A DNA stretch of 64,000 nucleotides from Minisyncoccota bacterium. Lineage in GTDB: Bacteria; Patescibacteriota; Minisyncoccia; Minisyncoccales; GWA2-38-27. Shown here in pieces: positions 19,273-56,326 of the stretch. The notes below the pieces were generated by a model. The model saw only the letters and a program-made list of their open reading frames with translations, made no database searches and was not told the DNA's origin. The position numbers and the translations under genes are program-made. The stretch is from positions 103,876 to 167,875 of the forward strand of contig JAQTZP010000001.1 of NCBI GenBank assembly GCA_028687715.1. The letters are read 5' to 3'. The first letter of the stretch is position 1, and each line of letters starts with the position of its first letter.

Positions 19273-19788
19273 ATGGATATTATAACTCATGCTTTAATAG
19301 GCAGGGCCATATCTTTATCTAAAAAAGAAACAAGGCGCAGTATTTATTTTGCCGTGTTTTTCAGTCTTTTAGCTGATTTAATTTCTCTTCCTTTATACCT
19401 TTATATCGGTTTTATCAATAATAGGCTGTTTTGGATTCCTTTAAACAGCGACTGGGACGGATTTAGGGATCTTCACCCTTTTCTATCAGCTTTATACGAT
19501 ATCCCTCACAGCGTATTTTTTCTTTTGATAGTGATTCTGCCCCTTGTTTTATTTTTTAAACTGCCCAAGATTTCTTTTTGGGCCTATGGCGCTCATCTTT
19601 TTTTAGACTTATTCAGCCATTACGGCGAATGGGCTCTTAAGCCGTTTTATCCATTAGGTTATAAGTTTGAAGGTTTTACAAACGGCTGGAGCTGGTCCAT
19701 TCAAAGCATGGCAATTTTATGGATTTCTATTATAATAATTATTATAGTTTCTAAAAAGTTATTATCATATAAATCAAAGAAAATATGA
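19273..19788 (+). CDS. Membrane-bound metal-dependent hydrolase (YdjM/DUF457-like)
   Basis: [10 protein letters not shown] start and conserved His residues (HS..., LFSHYGEW). Confidence 0.5.
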
Positions 19789-20249
19789 AAACATTAATAT
19801 CAACGATTGTTTCTTTATCGGTTGTATGTTTATTTTTTTATCTCGGATATCACTATTTTAACAATATTAATTTAGAAGAAGAAAACAAACCAATAAATGA
19901 GGCAGTGAATATACAGAATCAGGAGCTAAAGATAGAGGTTTTAAAAGAAGGAGAAGGGGATGGGGCTGAAAACGGAGATTTATTGACAGTTGACTACACC
20001 GGCACCCTAGAGAATGGCGCTAAATTTGATTCAAGCATTGACAGAAAAACTCCTTTTGTTTTTACATTAGGCAAAGGAGAAGTTATTAAAGGTTGGGAGC
20101 AGGGGCTTTTAGGCGCAAAAGCAGGAGAAAAGCTTAAACTAATAATTCCTCCTAATCTCGCTTATGGAGAAAACGGAGTGTCAGGCTTAATACCTCCAAA
20201 CGCTGTACTGATTTTTGAAGTTGATGTTTTAGATATTGATAATGAGTAG
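19785..20249 (+). CDS. FKBP-type peptidyl-prolyl cis-trans isomerase, membrane-anchored
   Basis: [18 protein letters not shown]...[16 protein letters not shown]...PPNLAYG. Confidence 0.85.
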
Positions 20250-20285
20250 CTTGACATAAGGGTTAATCATAATATAGAATATAAT

Positions 20286-20402
20286 AGTGTCCCGGGGAGG
20301 AAGAGGGAATTCTGCCGGCCGATAAGGATCGTGCCCGGTTGACAAGCAGTCCACTTCTTGGAAACCTTCAGTTTCCACTATTCTCTCTTCCTCCATTTTT
20401 TA
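20286..20402 (+). ncRNA. Candidate small RNA 'a': three-way-junction RNA closed by a 15-bp purine/pyrimidine helix plus U-tract
   Basis: TTGACA at 20251 with TATAGA 16 nt downstream. GGAGGAAGAGGGAAT (20296-20310) pairs with ATTCTCTCTTCCTCC (20380-20394) and is followed by ATTTTTTATTT. Internal hairpins are GGCCGAT-AAGG-ATCGTGCC and TGGAAAC-cttca-GTTTCCA. Confidence 0.55.
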
Positions 20403-20454
20403 TTTCAGCTCAAAAAACCTTGACACCTATATCTTGTTTTTATAAAATAAATAC

Positions 20455-20560
20455 AGCATCGTTCTCTGGGAGGGAAGAAGGGCCGGCTGGCGTTAAGAGA
20501 GTTCGTAGGCCCTCTTCCCTCCCTATATATAATTAGGCCTTTATTAGGCCTTTTCTTTTT
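20455..20560 (+). ncRNA. Candidate small RNA 'b': 16-bp purine/pyrimidine hairpin plus a separate terminator
   Basis: TTGACA (20420)-N17-TAAAAT (20443). GGGAGGGAAGAAGGGCC (20468-20484) pairs with GGCCCTCTTCCCTCCC (20508-20523), with one bulged A. Then the AGGCC..GGCCTTTTCTTTTT terminator (20535-20560). Confidence 0.55.
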
Positions 20561-20561
20561 C

Positions 20562-20570
20562 TGGTATAAT
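20562..20570 (+). promoter_or_regulatory. Extended -10 promoter (TGgTATAAT) that would give a leaderless rlmE mRNA
   Basis: TATAAT ends at 20570. The ATG at 20577 sits at the expected transcription start distance. Confidence 0.45.
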
Positions 20571-20576
20571 AAAGCA

Positions 20577-21182
20577 ATGTATCGAAAAGATTTAAAAGAT
20601 GAAGCATATACTATAAGGGCTAAAAGAGAGGGTTATCCCGCCAGGTCTGTGTATAAATTAAAAGAGATAGACGAAAAGTATAAAGTGTTTAAAAAGGGGA
20701 ACTTGGTTTTAGATTTGGGATCTAGTCCCGGTTCCTGGCTTATCTATATCTCAAATAAAATAGGAGAGAAAGGAAGGGTGGTGGGAGTTGATTTAGAAGA
20801 TATCAAGATTCCTTTATCAGGCAACATTCTTTTTATAAAAAAAGATATTTTAAATACAAAGCCTTTGGATTTATTGATATTAGGAAAAAAATACAATGTT
20901 TTAGTTTCTGATCTTTCGCCTAAGACTTCAGGATTAAAATCTTTTGACAGCGCTAAGTCCTTAGAGCTTTCAGAAAAATCATTGGAATTGGCGCATAATT
21001 TGTTAGAAAAAGGAGGGAACTTCATCTGTAAGATATTTGAAGGAGAATCAGTCAGCGATTTTTTTAAGAAAGTCTCAGATAGTTTTGAATTTGTAAAAAG
21101 ATTTAAGCCGAGAGCAAGCTTTAAAAAAAGCAAAGAGCTCTATATCATCGCCAAAGGATTCAAAAAGATATATGAAGATTAA
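20577..21182 (+). CDS. rlmE: 23S rRNA U2552 2'-O-methyltransferase RlmE/FtsJ
   Basis: RSVYKLKEID...VLDLGSSPGSWL...VSDLSP. Confidence 0.85.
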   Translation: MYRKDLKDEAYTIRAKREGYPARSVYKLKEIDEKYKVFKKGNLVLDLGSSPGSWLIYISNKIGEKGRVVGVDLEDIKIPLSGNILFIKKDILNTKPLDLLILGKKYNVLVSDLSPKTSGLKSFDSAKSLELSEKSLELAHNLLEKGGNFICKIFEGESVSDFFKKVSDSFEFVKRFKPRASFKKSKELYIIAKGFKKIYED

Positions 21183-32953: not shown

Positions 32954-33665
32954 AAAAAAAGAAGGCGTTTTACTTTTCTGTTTAGGGTTTCTGGATCATC
33001 CAGAAATTGACCTATTCAGTTTCAGTAAAACGCCCTGTGAGGGCTTAAGGTTTGAGTCGAAATAACCTCACCCTCTGGTTGTCTGCCCGACCGCAAAGTG
33101 CCACGACTCGTTGGCGGTGCGTCTAGTCAACAGACAACCATTATGTTCAAAAGAACCGATGTCGAAATCCTATGAATCCCTCTTCAGAAAAATCTTTTGG
33201 TAAATTTCTCTGAAGAAGAGGCGAAGAATTATTCTTCGCCACATTAGAAAGGAACTGACAGGCAACTCGCTGTGCACCGCGAGTTTTCGCGTTTTGCGGT
33301 CAATAACCGCAGATGGAGGCCGCAACTCGCGGAGATACACTCCACCAACGTTAAGTCGGTTGATTCCAATGCCAGAAACCCAATTGGGTCTCTACGCCCC
33401 GGTCTCCTCCTCAAAGGCAGGGGAGACCCTATTTTTAATGGGCGCCTCGCGAGCAAAGCCGCTTATTAAGGAGGCGGACTCCCACCAACTCCCTGTCAGT
33501 TTCAAAAGAACAAGTGGCCCCTGTAGTTCCTTGGGCGACCGGGGCTCCGTCTTCCCCAAGGACCGACTGTCGGCTCATCCAGGATTGCGTCGGCCGCACC
33601 TGACTGCTCAGCTGTTCTTGTCAGCCAAAAGACCCGCTGAGCGATCTCCTGACTACTTTCGTTAT
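32954..33665 (-). ncRNA. Unassigned large structured RNA 'A' (about 710 nt; possibly two RNAs split at the 33220-33240 hairpin)
   Basis: Consensus promoter and a long-stem terminator (33034-33024 pairs with 32974-32964, then a U-run). GC-rich with many perfect helices, for example CTGACAGG/CCTGTCAG, GGTCTCC/GGAGACC, CCTTGGG/CCCAAGG and GCTCAGC/GCTGAGC. Only spurious ORFs. Confidence 0.6.
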
Positions 33666-46751: not shown

Positions 46752-48738
<1,987 letters not shown>

Positions 48739-48883
48739 TTTTTTTGAGTGTCGGCTAAGATTGATTTTTGAGAATTCTGAAATCAATTTTAAGGGTGTTT
48801 ATCGCCAACCTTTAAATAGCGATAATAGTCAGGGCAGCTTTAAGAAGTTGAAGAAAATAAGGCCTTTTTGAGGCTTTATTTTT

Positions 48884-51791: not shown

Positions 51792-53582
51792 CAGGGATGT
51801 GATCCCGGTGAAATAGAACCTGAAACCATTTTGCCTACAAGGAGGCAGAGCGCAGAGCGTTTTGTTTCGAACTTTTCAGTTCGTGATAAAACGCTCTGCG
51901 TGATGCTGTGCCTATTGAAGAATGAGCCAACGAGTTTCAGCCTCAGTTTTGTTTAAGCCCTTACAGGGCGCAAGCATAGGGAAACCAAGTGTTAAAAGCG
52001 CGAATATTGAACTGAAGCTGAAGACCCGAAGCCAGACGAGCTTACCATGGCCAGGGTGAATCTTGATGAAAATCAAGAGGAGGCCCGAACCCGTGAGCCG
52101 TGCAATACTCTGGGATGAGCTGTGGTAAGGAGTGAAAAGCTAATCGAGTCTGGTAATAGCTGGTTCTCCCCGAAATAGCTTTAGGGCTAGCGTCGGTTTT
52201 ATTAAAATTGGAGGTAGAGCACTGAATGGAATTACGTGGATTTATCCAGTCTTTCCAATCAAACTCCGAATGCCAATTTTTTACACCGGCAGTCAGACTG
52301 TGGGGGCTAAGCTCCATGGTCTAAAGGAAAAGAGTCCAGATCTTCATCTAAGGTCCCTAAACTAAGCTAAGTGTTTTTAAGGAAGTAAAATTCCAGTGAT
52401 AGATAGGAGGTTAGCTTAGAAGCAGCTATCCTTTAAAAAGTGCGTAACAGCTTACTATTTAAGGAATTTTGCGTCGAAGATTTACGGGACTAAAGCTTAG
52501 TACCGAAGATAAGGCCTTTCATTTTATTTATAATTTGGAAGGGGTAGGGGAGCATCCTTCATTCTGCGAAGGTCAGTTGCGAAGCTGGCTGGAGGATGAA
52601 GGAGAGAGAATGTTGGCATGAGTAACCACAATGGACGTGAAAGTCGTCCACACCGTTAGCCTAAGGTTTCCTTGGCAATGACAATCAGCCAAGGGTTAGG
52701 CGGGCCTAAGAGAAAGCCGAAAGGCGTACTCGATGGACAGCCGGTTAATATTCCGGCCCTCTGATTTTACTTTTCTTAAAATGACAAAGAGCAGTAGTTT
52801 TTACGTATTATTGGATTTACGTTTGCAATATAAGGAGCAATCCAAGTGTTGTGAAAATCTTTTTCCACGGAAGAAGAAATTTAAATGAGCGCTCTTTCTA
52901 GAAAAGTTTTAAGAAAGTTATAGTAAGATTGGATCCGTACCGCAAACCGACACAGGTAGGCAGGCATAAGTGTGCCAAGGTGAACGGGTGAAAGCTCCTG
53001 AAGGAACTCGGCAAAAAAGCAGACGTAACTTCGGGATATGTCTTTCCCGAGAGCGCAAGCTTATCGGGACGCAGTGAAAGTCCCCCTAGCGACTGTTTAT
53101 CAAAAACACAGGTCCCTGCTAAACTCGTAAGAGGATGTATAGGGGCTGAGGCCTGACCAGTGCTGGAACGTCAAAAGTGCCGGTATTTGCCGCAAGGTGA
53201 ATGCTGAGTGCTTGAAGCGCCAGTAAACGTCGGCGATAACCATAATCGTCCAAAGGTAGCGTAATCCCTTGCCGTGTAAGTTACGGCCCGCATGAAAGGC
53301 TTAACGACTAGGGGACTGTCTCCAGGAGTTGCCCGGTGAAAATGCAGTACCGGTAAAGATGCCGGTTACCTGCGGCTAGACGGAAAGACCCCGGGAGCTT
53401 TACTGTAGCCTAATATTGAATTTTGATCTTGAATGCGTAGCGTAGGTGGGAGACTTTGAAATCCGCTTTTCGGGGCGGATGGAGTCGCCAATGAAACACC
53501 ACTCTTTTTAGGTCTTTATTCTAACTTTAGCGTTTTGCTAAAAGACAGTGTTTGGCGGTCAGTTTAAGTGGGGCACTTGCCT

Positions 53583-54344
53583 TAACTAATCTTGTAAAAA
53601 TAAAACGCGTTACAAGATGGGGCCGTTTTAGAGTAATCTAAAATGTAAAACTCGACTAATATGCTGGAACAACCGAGTATCTAAAAGTACTTAATTTTAG
53701 TATAATTAAGTAATAATCTTTTAGTGCGGTCAATCAGCAGGGAATTGTTTAAGAATTAAAAATTAAACAAGCCCTCAACGACTGCATGTCGAGTTCCTGA
53801 TATGAATATATAAATCAGGAAAGTGATACAGTCTGAACTTTATGGCGACATAAAGATTTGGTAATGTTAGCCTATTATAGTGCTCGCTAACTAATCCAAA
53901 ACTTAAAACTCTAATTTATGAAAAGTATAATAATTGAGGATTATAAAAATAAACTTTCTTTTAGCAAAAGACTTGGAAAAATTTTAGGAGATGGACATTT
54001 AGAAAAATTATATACTCCAGGACAAGGACGTTTAAAAGTAGAACATAGCTATAAACAGAAAGAAAAAGAATATGTAGATTGGTTTTATAAAGAATTTAAG
54101 AATTGGGTTCGCACAGAACCAAAACAGAAAATAAAGAAAGTTTGGGGTAAAATTCATAGTAATTATGGATTTTCTACTTATGGTCATAGATTATTAGGAA
54201 ATTTTCATAAAGATTTTTATCAGGATAGAAAAACAGATATATTTAGGAGGGAAATCAGGTGAAAAATTTATTAAAATAATTAATCCTTTTATAATTCCCT
54301 CTATGAGGTATAAAATTTCAAGAGTTTTAAGGTTAACAGAATTG
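53583..54344 (+). mobile_element. Group I intron 1, about 10 nt 3' of the P-loop GGGGC
   Basis: The exon ends in T (..CACTTGCCT) and the intron ends in G (..GAATTG). The ligated exons restore the helix GCCTCC-TAAAGAGTAAT-GGAGGC. Core-like elements CAACGACTG and GATACAGTCT. Confidence 0.8.
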
Positions 54345-54356
54345 CCTAAAGAGTAA
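53918..54356 (+). pseudogene. Decayed LAGLIDADG homing endonuclease gene
   Basis: The first motif LGKILGDGHL is present. The ORF stops at 54262. The second LAGLIDADG block is missing. The C-terminal homology (EKFIKIINPFIIPSMRYKI) resumes in the +1 frame and runs into the exon. Confidence 0.7.
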
Positions 54357-54532
54357 TGGAGGCGTTTATAAGGTCGGCTAGCTCCGGATGGAAATCGGAG
54401 CGATAGGATAAAGCCATAAGCCGGCTTTACTGCAAGACGGATATGTCGCGCAGTTGGGAAACCAGAACTTAGTGAACCGACGGATTTTTATAGAAAATCC
54501 GAAGATCATCAGACAAAAGTTACCCCGGGGAT

Positions 54533-55421
54533 AAACTCTGAAAAAAGAGTTTGTTGTCCAACCTACCTGAGAAGGTAGGAGTCTTAAAAATTAATTTTTA
54601 AGACATGTACGGCTTATAACGGTGAACCAAAAACAGGTCTTCCCTAAATGGGTTTTGAGTTTTTGGAATACCGTGGGAAGTCGGAAAGAATAATCTAAAT
54701 TTATGATTAATTTATCTAAAGAACAAAAATCTGTTCTGTTAGGAACAATCATTGGTGATGGATATCTTCAGAAAACAGGAAAACTTAACGCAAGATTAAG
54801 ATTAGAACATGGATATAAACAGAAAGAATATCTTCTATGGAAAATAAAAATGTTAGGATATTTGTTTCAGGGAAAACCAAAGTATCTAGAAAGAATTCAT
54901 CCCATAACAAAAAGGAAACATAGATATTGGCGTCATCAGTCTCAATCTACGCCTTATTTAGGTAAATTAAGAAAGGTTTTCTATCCCAAAGAAAAGAAAG
55001 AAATTCCAGAAAACTTTGGAAAATATATTACACCGTTAATGTTAGCGGTATGGTATATGGATGACGGCTATTATTATAAAAGGGATAGATGCAGTTATCT
55101 TTATCTAGGAAACGTGAATAAAAAAGAAGCTGATATTGTATCTAAGACAATACTTAATAAATTTAAGATTGAAACAAAGATAAAAGAGAGAAAGAAAGGA
55201 TATGCGATTTATTTTTCTCCCTCTGAATCTCAAAAATTAAAATTATTGATAAAAAATTATATTATTAATTATTTTAATTATAAAATTCCTTCTTGACCCC
55301 GTAACGACTTGTCTATTTTTAGACAGAGTAGGGTATTAATTGAAACCTTGCTAAAACGCCGTCTCCAGCCCATATTATTTATATGGCTGGATGAAGATAT
55401 AGTCTAATCTTAAAAAGATTG
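54533..55421 (+). mobile_element. Group I intron 2 at GGGGAT|AACAGGCT, which from memory is the site class of the yeast mitochondrial omega (I-SceI) intron
   Basis: The exon ends in T and the intron ends in G (..AAGATTG). Contains AAGATATAGTC, which from memory resembles a group I core element near P7, and CCCCGTAACGACT. Confidence 0.85.
54703..55296 (+). CDS. LAGLIDADG homing endonuclease (intact, double-motif)
   Basis: LLGTIIGDGYL and LAVWYMDDGYY. Confidence 0.85.
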   Translation: MINLSKEQKSVLLGTIIGDGYLQKTGKLNARLRLEHGYKQKEYLLWKIKMLGYLFQGKPKYLERIHPITKRKHRYWRHQSQSTPYLGKLRKVFYPKEKKEIPENFGKYITPLMLAVWYMDDGYYYKRDRCSYLYLGNVNKKEADIVSKTILNKFKIETKIKERKKGYAIYFSPSESQKLKLLIKNYIINYFNYKIPS

Positions 55422-55483
55422 AACAGGCTAGTAGAGCCCGAGAGTTCACATCAACGGCTCTGTTCGGCACCTCGATGTCGGCT

Positions 55484-56326
55484 AAAATGATTGGCCGCTT
55501 TCCGAGTAATCGGAATGACAAAATTCAGCTAATAACGGTGAAATCCATTGTTTATTTCGGCTCATAATGTTATTGTAAAATAATGGACAATACCGTGGGA
55601 AGTCAAAAAAAAATAAATTCAAAACAAAAAAGATTATTAATAGGAACTCTATTAGGTGATGGAACTTTAGAATTAAATGGTCGATATGCACGTTTAAGGA
55701 TAAACCACAGTTTAAAGCAGAAAACTTATGTCGAATGGAAGCATAAATTACTTTATAAATTAGCAGCACGAGATAGAATTGTTTGTTTTTCTAGAAATGC
55801 AGATTTAAGAACAAATAAAACGTATTATTTTTGCAGATTCGATACTAACACTAATTTTCTGTTAGATAGATTTTATAAAATCTTCTATGTTAATGGTAAA
55901 AAAAGAGTGCCTAATAACATAATCAAAGTTTTGAATGATCCTTTATCTTTAGCAGTATGGTTTATGGATGACGGATATAAAAGAAATGACTGTAATTCGT
56001 TAAGAATTAGTACTGATGCGTTTACTTTTAAAGAACAAATTTTACTTAAGAATTGTTTGAAAGAAAACTTTAATATAGATTGTAAAATTCATAGAAAAGG
56101 GAAATACTGGAATATTTATATTCCTAGTTTAGAAGCAAAAAAATTCTCTAGAATAATAAAACCTTATATTATTCCTGAGATGAAGTACAAAATTTTGACC
56201 CCGTAACGACTGAGGTTTAAACCAAGATGGTGGTGAATAAATTACCCATCATAATACGCTGACTCCCATTATTAAATGGGAAGATGATATAGTCTACACT
56301 TCAAGTAATTGAAGACTGATAATGTG
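55484..56326 (+). mobile_element. Group I intron 3 at GATGTCGGCT|CATCACATCC (peptidyl-transferase-centre region)
   Basis: The exon ends in T and the intron ends in G (..TAATGTG). It shares AATACCGTGGGAAGTC, TAACGGTGAA, CCCCGTAACGACT and GATATAGTCT with intron 2. Confidence 0.85.
55583..56206 (+). CDS. LAGLIDADG homing endonuclease (intact, double-motif)
   Basis: LIGTLLGDGTL and LAVWFMDDGYK; paralogue of the intron 2 enzyme. Confidence 0.85.
   Translation: MDNTVGSQKKINSKQKRLLIGTLLGDGTLELNGRYARLRINHSLKQKTYVEWKHKLLYKLAARDRIVCFSRNADLRTNKTYYFCRFDTNTNFLLDRFYKIFYVNGKKRVPNNIIKVLNDPLSLAVWFMDDGYKRNDCNSLRISTDAFTFKEQILLKNCLKENFNIDCKIHRKGKYWNIYIPSLEAKKFSRIIKPYIIPEMKYKILTP

Follow-up and report, generated by a model that had tools for sequence, protein, structure and literature searches.

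The 325-nt spacer between the gene for an FKBP-type isomerase and rlmE, in a 64,000-nt stretch of a Minisyncoccota genome (GenBank assembly GCA_028687715.1, contig JAQTZP010000001.1, positions 103,876 to 167,875 of the forward strand; hereafter the window), contains two promoter-hairpin-terminator units, both on the strand of the genes. Our favoured explanation, which we hold with moderate confidence, is that the units are two paralogous, lineage-specific genes for candidate small RNAs, here called RNA1 and RNA2, each with its ends paired to one another. The pair looks like a lineage-specific curiosity, not a new conserved RNA family. An earlier note on this DNA had described the layout of TTGACA promoters, 15-16 bp helices, a U-tract or separate terminator, a position between FKBP and rlmE, and an extended -10 element before rlmE, and every one of these features is present in the sequence. 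Its interpretation as a pair of RNAs stands insofar as the units are separate, lie on the gene strand and belong to no known family; its view that neither is a copy of the other does not stand, and the lack of conservation that it had named as a refutation is what we find.

Two promoter-hairpin-terminator units

The features of the spacer are as follows, in coordinates of the window.

20251 to 20280, + strand: promoter P1 (TTGACA 20251-20256, 18 nt spacing, TAGAAT 20275-20280; 11/12 consensus)
20288 to 20402, + strand: candidate RNA1, about 110-115 nt, ends predicted from the promoter and T-run
20296 to 20310, + strand: RNA1 5' purine arm, GGAGGAAGAGGGAAT, partner of 20380-20394
20314 to 20339, + strand: RNA1 hairpin A, loop AAGG (minimum-free-energy and centroid folds)
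20340 to 20358, + strand: RNA1 linker of 19 nt, single-stranded in the centroid fold
20359 to 20377, + strand: RNA1 hairpin B, 7 Watson-Crick pairs, loop CTTCA (from the fold)
20380 to 20401, + strand: RNA1 3' pyrimidine arm (20380-20394), A20395 and T6 run (20396-20401), terminator-like in form
20420 to 20448, + strand: promoter P2 (TTGACA 20420-20425, 17 nt, TAAAAT 20443-20448; 11/12 consensus)
20455 to 20560, + strand: candidate RNA2, about 100-105 nt, ends predicted
20468 to 20523, + strand: RNA2 long hairpin (arms 20468-20484 and 20508-20523, 16 pairs, A20479 bulged)
20535 to 20560, + strand: RNA2 intrinsic terminator (6-bp stem and 5-nt loop, 20535-20551, then a T-rich run to 20560)
20562 to 20570, + strand: extended -10 promoter of rlmE, TGGTATAAT, with the ATG at 20577; a neighbour of the pair, not a part of it

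P1 starts 2 nt past the FKBP stop codon. In RNA1 the arm GGAGGAAGAGGGAAT pairs with ATTCTCTCTTCCTCC (20380-20394) to form a closing helix of 15 pairs, including one G-U, with a duplex energy of -24.4 kcal/mol; the unpaired junction within it consists of the linker plus G20338 and T20339, and a further TTGACA (20339-20344) starts one base ahead of the linker. The long hairpin of RNA2 (62.5% G+C; duplex energy -33.0 kcal/mol) closes on an apical region of 23 nt (20485-20507) and is itself followed by TATATATAATT, with the separate terminator further on.

Both RNAs fold far better than shuffled sequences. Compared with 200 dinucleotide shuffles per RNA, RNA1 folded at -44.6 kcal/mol (shuffles -31.2+-3.7; z -3.66) and RNA2 at -46.7 kcal/mol (shuffles -31.8+-3.4; z -4.45), and in neither case was any of the 200 shuffles as good. 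The stem of RNA1 is among 22 uninterrupted stems of at least 15 bp, in a genome-wide set of 150 stems of at least 12 bp. The - strand of RNA1 folds worse, at -40.9 kcal/mol, than the + strand, and its two G-U pairs, which lie in the closing helix and at the foot of hairpin A, can form on the + strand only. These G-U pairs and the promoter and terminator signals favour the + strand.

P1 and P2 are the only 11/12 promoter matches within the 1.6 kb that we scanned. Genome-wide, 66 such sites occur in 1.4 Mb of strand, as against 29-46 in block shuffles. A single promoter site would be weak evidence, but two within 170 nt, both on the strand of the genes and both immediately ahead of a helix, are not expected. 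The start-site context after the -10 element is ATAGT at P1 and ACAGC at P2; context of this kind was found at 14 of the 75 TTGACA promoters of the genome, compared with 4/75 at control offsets.

The two RNAs are also islands of about 62% G+C against an intergenic mean of 34+-11%; over 20295-20393, within RNA1, G+C is 52.5%, as against 35.7% for the window. Among the 52 intergenic islands of at least 55% G+C, 30 are genes for tRNA, transfer-messenger RNA (tmRNA), rRNA or RNase P, and RNA1 and RNA2 belong to the 22 left unexplained. Others in that group, at 55-75% G+C, lie at C1:1346-1500, C1:2336-2490, C2:101496-101580 and C3:38321-38465 and at 33031-33145 in the window. The 22 islands may hold further RNA genes, small open reading frames (ORFs) or repeats. 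Two small ORFs overlapping the pair, 20339-20536 (+) and 20229-20396 (-), had no Pfam match at E 0.01 or better.

The earlier note had denied that the units are copies of each other. They do align, from the promoter through the 5' arm to the first inner hairpin (hairpin A), with a local score of 22 where shuffles average 15.7+-2.1, a score reached by 4 of 300 shuffles. Their arms are one indel and a few changes apart. When the two are read side by side, the purine arm of RNA2 has one G more than that of RNA1, and its pyrimidine arm has one more C to match; the three pairs at the inner end of the helix differ on both sides between RNA1 and RNA2. The units are probably diverged tandem copies whose helices were kept during divergence, a point for which two sequences are weak evidence. 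We built single-sequence covariance models, one per RNA, by giving each RNA twice to the aligner; the RNA2 model does not align RNA1, and therefore there is no joint model.

Under the favoured explanation, a tandem duplication would have produced two small non-coding RNA genes confined to the organism's own lineage. Each would be transcribed from its own sigma-70-type promoter to an intrinsic terminator, with predicted ends giving an RNA1 of about 110 nt and an RNA2 of about 100 nt. A very stable purine/pyrimidine helix of 15 or 16 bp would lock the 5' and 3' parts together, enclosing a three-way junction in RNA1 (hairpin A, the 19-nt open linker and hairpin B) and only the 23-nt apical region in RNA2. 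The helix may act as a protective or recognition handle and the apical parts as working surfaces; the exposed parts are the AAGG loop of hairpin A, the RNA1 linker and the RNA2 apex. End-paired architecture is typical of stable protein-binding RNAs, and seed-pairing regulators usually differ. Because the ends are locked in helices, the CCUCC motif is paired (see below) and no target stood above controls, these RNAs are more likely to be protein-binding than base-pairing regulators. Transcription, the ends of the RNAs and any function are what we infer, whereas the sequence features, the stability of the folds, the lack of a known family and the likely paralogy are observed. If expressed, the pair would be a compact, testable case of tandem duplication giving rise to young, lineage-specific RNA genes, in a genome of 0.7 Mb that is otherwise shedding functions.

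Homologues, expression and known RNA families

A number of results weigh against the favoured explanation. In this A+T-rich genome, 11/12 promoter sites outnumber those in shuffles by a factor of only about 1.5 to 2.3, and the stem of RNA1 runs directly into T6 and could simply end FKBP transcription. BLAST of the 325-nt region against 40 relatives returned short A+T-rich matches only, the best of which (G002, E 8.9e-5) falls within an ORF of 507 aa. Across the 38 other family genomes the RNA2 model gave two weak matches, at E 0.07 and 0.48 (G024 and G043), and the RNA1 model gave none; among 150 other genomes of the order, the RNA1 model gave one marginal, partial match (G182, 28.1 bits). Neither model found a homologue at 53 metagenomic rlmE loci (at most 68% identical), and there was no structural covariation beyond the two paralogues. 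The public sequencing runs that hold the locus are four DNA runs from one study, with no RNA run listed. Lastly, when four exposed or apical segments were compared with 678 start regions as possible mRNA targets, the best duplexes (-19.5 to -26.7 kcal/mol) were within or near the range of shuffled probes.

The weak matches were set aside on inspection. That in G024 overlaps the 3' end of a gene and has no arms in common with RNA2, and that in G043 falls in a cluster of pyrimidine-first hairpins. The cluster (locus L026, 1383-1645) is a 730-nt gap between divergent genes, full of pyrimidine-first CCTCCCCC/GGGGGAGG hairpins, with 10 inverted repeats. The G182 sequence was rejected as a homologue of the whole RNA: it is alike only in hairpin B and part of the linker, hairpin A is missing, 8 of the 15 closing pairs are non-canonical, and its 5' part overlaps a tRNA-Thr gene on the other strand. 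Weak matches at locus L058 (E 0.046 with the RNA2 model, 6.2 with the RNA1 model) come from one unrelated G+C-rich hairpin.

Within its own genome, the 325-nt region matched itself and 14 short segments at E 0.016 or worse. The flanking genes offer no more: rlmE is present in 7/41 genomes, with an upstream region that differs in 6/6 relatives, and FKBP in 6/39, with a downstream region that differs in 5/5. The contigs of the four DNA runs are identical at the locus, with no variants, and therefore no strain covariation can be used. The search for homologues that the earlier note had proposed thus yields none that convinces across 38 genomes of the family, 150 of the order, 52 loci of rlmE and 5 of FKBP, and the units show no conservation outside this genome; the collections searched contain no other genome of its genus. 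The units are therefore candidate genes, lineage-specific at best, and not a demonstrated RNA family. A limited full-text search on small or non-coding RNAs of the candidate phyla radiation brought up a paper on TIGR-Tas guide RNAs and no work on regulatory small RNAs in this group, which is an impression and not a claim of absence.

The earlier note could match the pair neither to signal recognition particle (SRP) RNA nor to a riboswitch, and our scans agree. A search of the whole window with Rfam at gathering scores gave no match in the hairpin region, and one of 20200-20620 at E up to 10 gave noise only (best mir-326, at 22.1 bits against a cut-off of 66). The SRP RNA models RF00169 and RF01854 had no match in the window, in 20200-20620 at E up to 10 or, at E up to 1, anywhere in the genome, and the 6S RNA model RF00013 had none in the region or the whole genome. 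6S RNA is rod-shaped, about 150-200 nt long, and has a large central bubble; the folds found here, a three-way junction (about 110 nt) and a simple hairpin (about 60 nt) followed by a terminator, do not agree with that identity, nor does the lack of a model match. The pair resembles 4.5S/SRP RNA, 6S RNA and Y RNAs in having its ends locked by a long helix, a strong promoter and a small size, and in such end-paired stable RNAs the functional parts sit at the apex of the long end helix. It is unlike 4.5S/SRP and 6S RNA in matching none of their three models, in being too short and in having no 6S central bubble. With bacterial small RNA genes in general the pair shares a sigma-70-type promoter, an RNA of about 100 nt, an intrinsic terminator, an intergenic site and a G+C content above that of the genome (36%, in 0.70 Mb); it differs from them in having no 5' single-stranded seed, no conservation and no identified target.

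A divergent SRP RNA was rejected because, besides the lack of a model match, the rest of the particle is not found and its loss in the lineage has been published. Searches of the genome for the Ffh domains PF02978 and PF00448 returned neither, none of its long ORFs has an SRP-type GTPase motif, and no Ffh, FtsY or SRP RNA was found in this genome or in 25 relatives. In samples that include this genome, PF00448 (the SRP54-type GTPase) was found in 0/26 genomes of the order, 0/61 of the class and 0/61 of the phylum, and TIGR00959 had no match above its cut-off in 5 complete genomes; SecY, a positive control, was found in the genome. SRP loss in Parcubacteria is described in PMC4508563 and PMC8080830.

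The pair is not RNase P RNA or tmRNA either, both of which have genes elsewhere in the genome. The RNase P RNA (G000:C5:46365-46701, where G000 is this genome) scores 81.5 bits, below the gathering score of 100, and by that measure appears to be a divergent or reduced form. Readings of the pair as an rRNA helix mimic, a K-turn, a C/D or H/ACA RNA, a retron RNA or a 5S-like RNA gained no support from comparison by eye and Rfam, the only means applied to them.

Alternatives without an RNA gene

The main rival explanation, to which we give a low but substantial probability, is that the hairpins are terminators or insulators with no function as RNA: RNA1 would end the FKBP transcript, RNA2 would shield the rlmE promoter from read-through, and the promoter boxes would be fortuitous or would yield short by-products. 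There is no other FKBP terminator before 20396, promoter matches as good as P1 and P2 occur in the shuffled genomes at the rate given above, neither unit is conserved, and short promoter-then-terminator units are common in the genome, with 25 listed in all. The usual terminators of the genome, short stems with loops of 3-8 nt, look unlike RNA1, in which a stem of 15 bp encloses a structured insert of 69 nt. Nor does the 16-bp helix of RNA2 fit well, since it has no U-run and is redundant with a canonical terminator 12 nt downstream. In both respects the units seem to go beyond simple terminators. Two near-consensus promoters, each 8-20 nt before a helix, are moreover unlikely by chance in a genome with about 1 such site per 21 kb of strand. 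If the hairpins are only terminators, the finding is an ordinary one. Two look-alike mini units outside the window, at G000:C2:75094 (+) and C2:51747 (-), each combine a TTGACA promoter with a short hairpin (about 30 nt, starting CTCTGGAG) and T7, with predicted transcripts of about 45 nt.

We consider it improbable that the hairpins are a DNA-level palindrome, REP- or MITE-like (that is, of the repetitive extragenic palindromic or miniature inverted-repeat transposable element kind) or a relic of mobile DNA, duplicated in place and without a function as a transcript. Purine-first order of the arms is a property that a DNA palindrome shows on both strands, a relative has the intergenic cluster of CCTCCCCC/GGGGGAGG hairpins described above, and FKBP and rlmE are both patchy in the family. 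Pattern scans of species genomes gave 7 loci, all in unrelated taxa, of which 4, in Bilophila or Lawsonia, are multi-copy hairpins with near-identical purine/pyrimidine palindromes. These Bilophila/Lawsonia palindromes (L103-L106) share with RNA1 a nearly identical purine arm, the purine-first order and very stable hairpins of about 25 bp, a likeness partly imposed by the search pattern; they differ in coming from unrelated organisms, in their short loops and multiple copies, and in having no flanking promoter or terminator that we could see. The palindrome is probably a repeated extragenic element. At our locus, by contrast, there are two copies only in the genome, adjacent to one another, and the stem scan found no other such purine/pyrimidine stem; neither a target-site duplication nor a nearby transposase was seen, the pattern scans of viral contigs returned 0 and 0 matches, and each copy is neatly flanked by promoter and terminator signals.

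The genes on either side of the pair bear on a further alternative. The FKBP gene (19785-20249) is assigned by the Pfam domain FKBP_C (E 5.6e-35) and rlmE (20577-21182) by FtsJ/RlmE (E 4.4e-48), and rlmE is accompanied by a pseudouridine synthase gene, so that two rRNA-modification genes lie directly downstream of the hairpin region on the same strand. The region might therefore be a cis-regulatory leader of these two genes, made either of attenuators in tandem or of a three-way junction resembling an orphan riboswitch, with terminators that a signal would allow to be read through, and RNA1 is indeed a closed three-way junction in which the closing helix also serves as a terminator. We doubt this strongly. 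The two units have promoters of their own, as leaders usually do not; Rfam gave no match to an aptamer; and two terminators and the rlmE promoter, close to its ATG, intervene. Because only 6 nt separate the -10 of rlmE from its ATG, the rlmE mRNA is probably leaderless. Genome-wide, the ATG lies at most 12 nt past the -10 in 12 of 92 promoter-ORF pairs. Among 52 rlmE loci, only the one studied here has, upstream of the gene, a purine/pyrimidine stem that runs for at least 9 bp without interruption. One structure in a relative speaks for a leader: in G022 (locus L020) an imperfect hairpin, about 70 nt long, lies 45-135 nt before rlmE and folds at -25.5 kcal/mol (z -4.55 relative to mononucleotide shuffles). 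Its 5' arm is rich in CCUCC and its 3' arm in GGAGG, the order opposite to that in the window, and neither covariance model matches it.

CsrA, the CCUCC motif and the 16S tail

The surroundings of the pair pose a sharper question than the hairpins do, namely what reads the AAGGAG boxes that survive before some genes in a lineage whose 16S rRNA has no anti-Shine-Dalgarno (anti-SD) sequence, and CsrA is an obvious candidate. It is a weak lead for a partner of the two RNAs, and the only concrete one. The csrA gene lies outside the window (G000:C6:51651-51809; PF02599 at 78.8 bits, above the cut-off) and has a strong promoter and a leader in which GGA occurs several times, and a search of the genome for FliW found none. 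Because CsrA is encoded and no FliW was found, an RNA antagonist of CsrA is plausible. That RNA1 and RNA2 bind and titrate CsrA nevertheless strikes us as quite unlikely. The purine arms are rich in GGA and the loop of hairpin A exposes AAGGA, which we take to fit a CsrA site; RNA1 has 5 GGA in about 100 nt, and only 155 of 9230 intergenic 110-nt windows have as many or more. The densest intergenic window was rejected as an RNA; it encodes a small acidic protein. Yet the exposed GGA (20326-20328; probability of being unpaired 0.997, 0.997 and 0.127 for G, G and A) is the only one exposed, at 1/5 in RNA1 and 0/2 in RNA2 and hence 1/7 overall, and known CsrA sponges expose many. One AAGGAT in 100 nt is not rare. 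CsrA is moreover present in 19 of 39 family genomes, and in none of the other 38 is there a homologue of RNA1 or RNA2. The pair is thus like CsrB, RsmY and RsmZ in the presence of csrA without fliW, in the GGA-rich RNA1 with a GGA in a loop, and in having its own promoter and terminator, and unlike them in the number of GGA motifs exposed and in the absence of co-occurrence with CsrA across the family.

The 3' end of the 16S rRNA reads GGATCATTTCATT (48727-48739), without CCUCC, as the earlier note had said, and the readable 16S ends of 15 relatives from the family and order (loci L029-L043) likewise lack CCTCC. Anti-SD loss has been published for a subgroup of the Parcubacteria (PMC9297842). 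In RNA1 and RNA2 the CCUCC is paired with a probability above 0.997; at 20390-20394 in RNA1 the probability of being unpaired is at most 0.003. Buried in the helix, it provides no free anti-SD or C-rich seed. Because it is fully base-paired, its likeness to an anti-SD is best treated as coincidence, a possibility that the earlier note had allowed for. RoxS/RsaE (RF01820) and other C-rich small RNAs that cover ribosome-binding sites have in common with the pair CCUCC-type motifs complementary to GGAGG. In RoxS/RsaE these C-rich motifs sit in open loops; in the pair the CCUCC is fully paired, and there is no Rfam match.

A broader proposal, which we rate as very unlikely, is that the end-paired RNAs regulate a regulon of GGA boxes, in which GGAGG:CCUCC duplexes and the GGA loop would titrate CsrA, or an unwound CCUCC would meet the boxes, as a lineage-specific layer replacing pairing between SD and anti-SD. 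Of 80 leadered candidate mRNAs, 22 keep SD-like boxes (AGGA, GGAG or GAGG), GGAG being most frequent at -12/-11, and these GGA boxes of leaders may be CsrA sites, not SD sites.

Least credible of all is that the pair supplies an anti-SD in trans, the CCUCC of the RNAs replacing that lost from the 16S and pairing with AAGGAG boxes in leaders: the 16S tails, the SD-like boxes that survive and the position of CCUCC close to the 3' end of RNA1 would suit it, but the motif is paired in both RNAs, the loss is common to 15 sampled genomes and has been published as lineage-wide while the RNAs occur in one genome only, no complementarity was found that would dock the RNAs on the 16S tail, and CsrA is a simpler candidate reader of GGA boxes.

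The rRNA genes of the window are themselves interrupted. The 16S leaves the conserved core near 48112 and resumes before 48692 (48100-48700), and the Rfam matches to the 23S are split, with a gap of about 2.7 kb (53579-56317).

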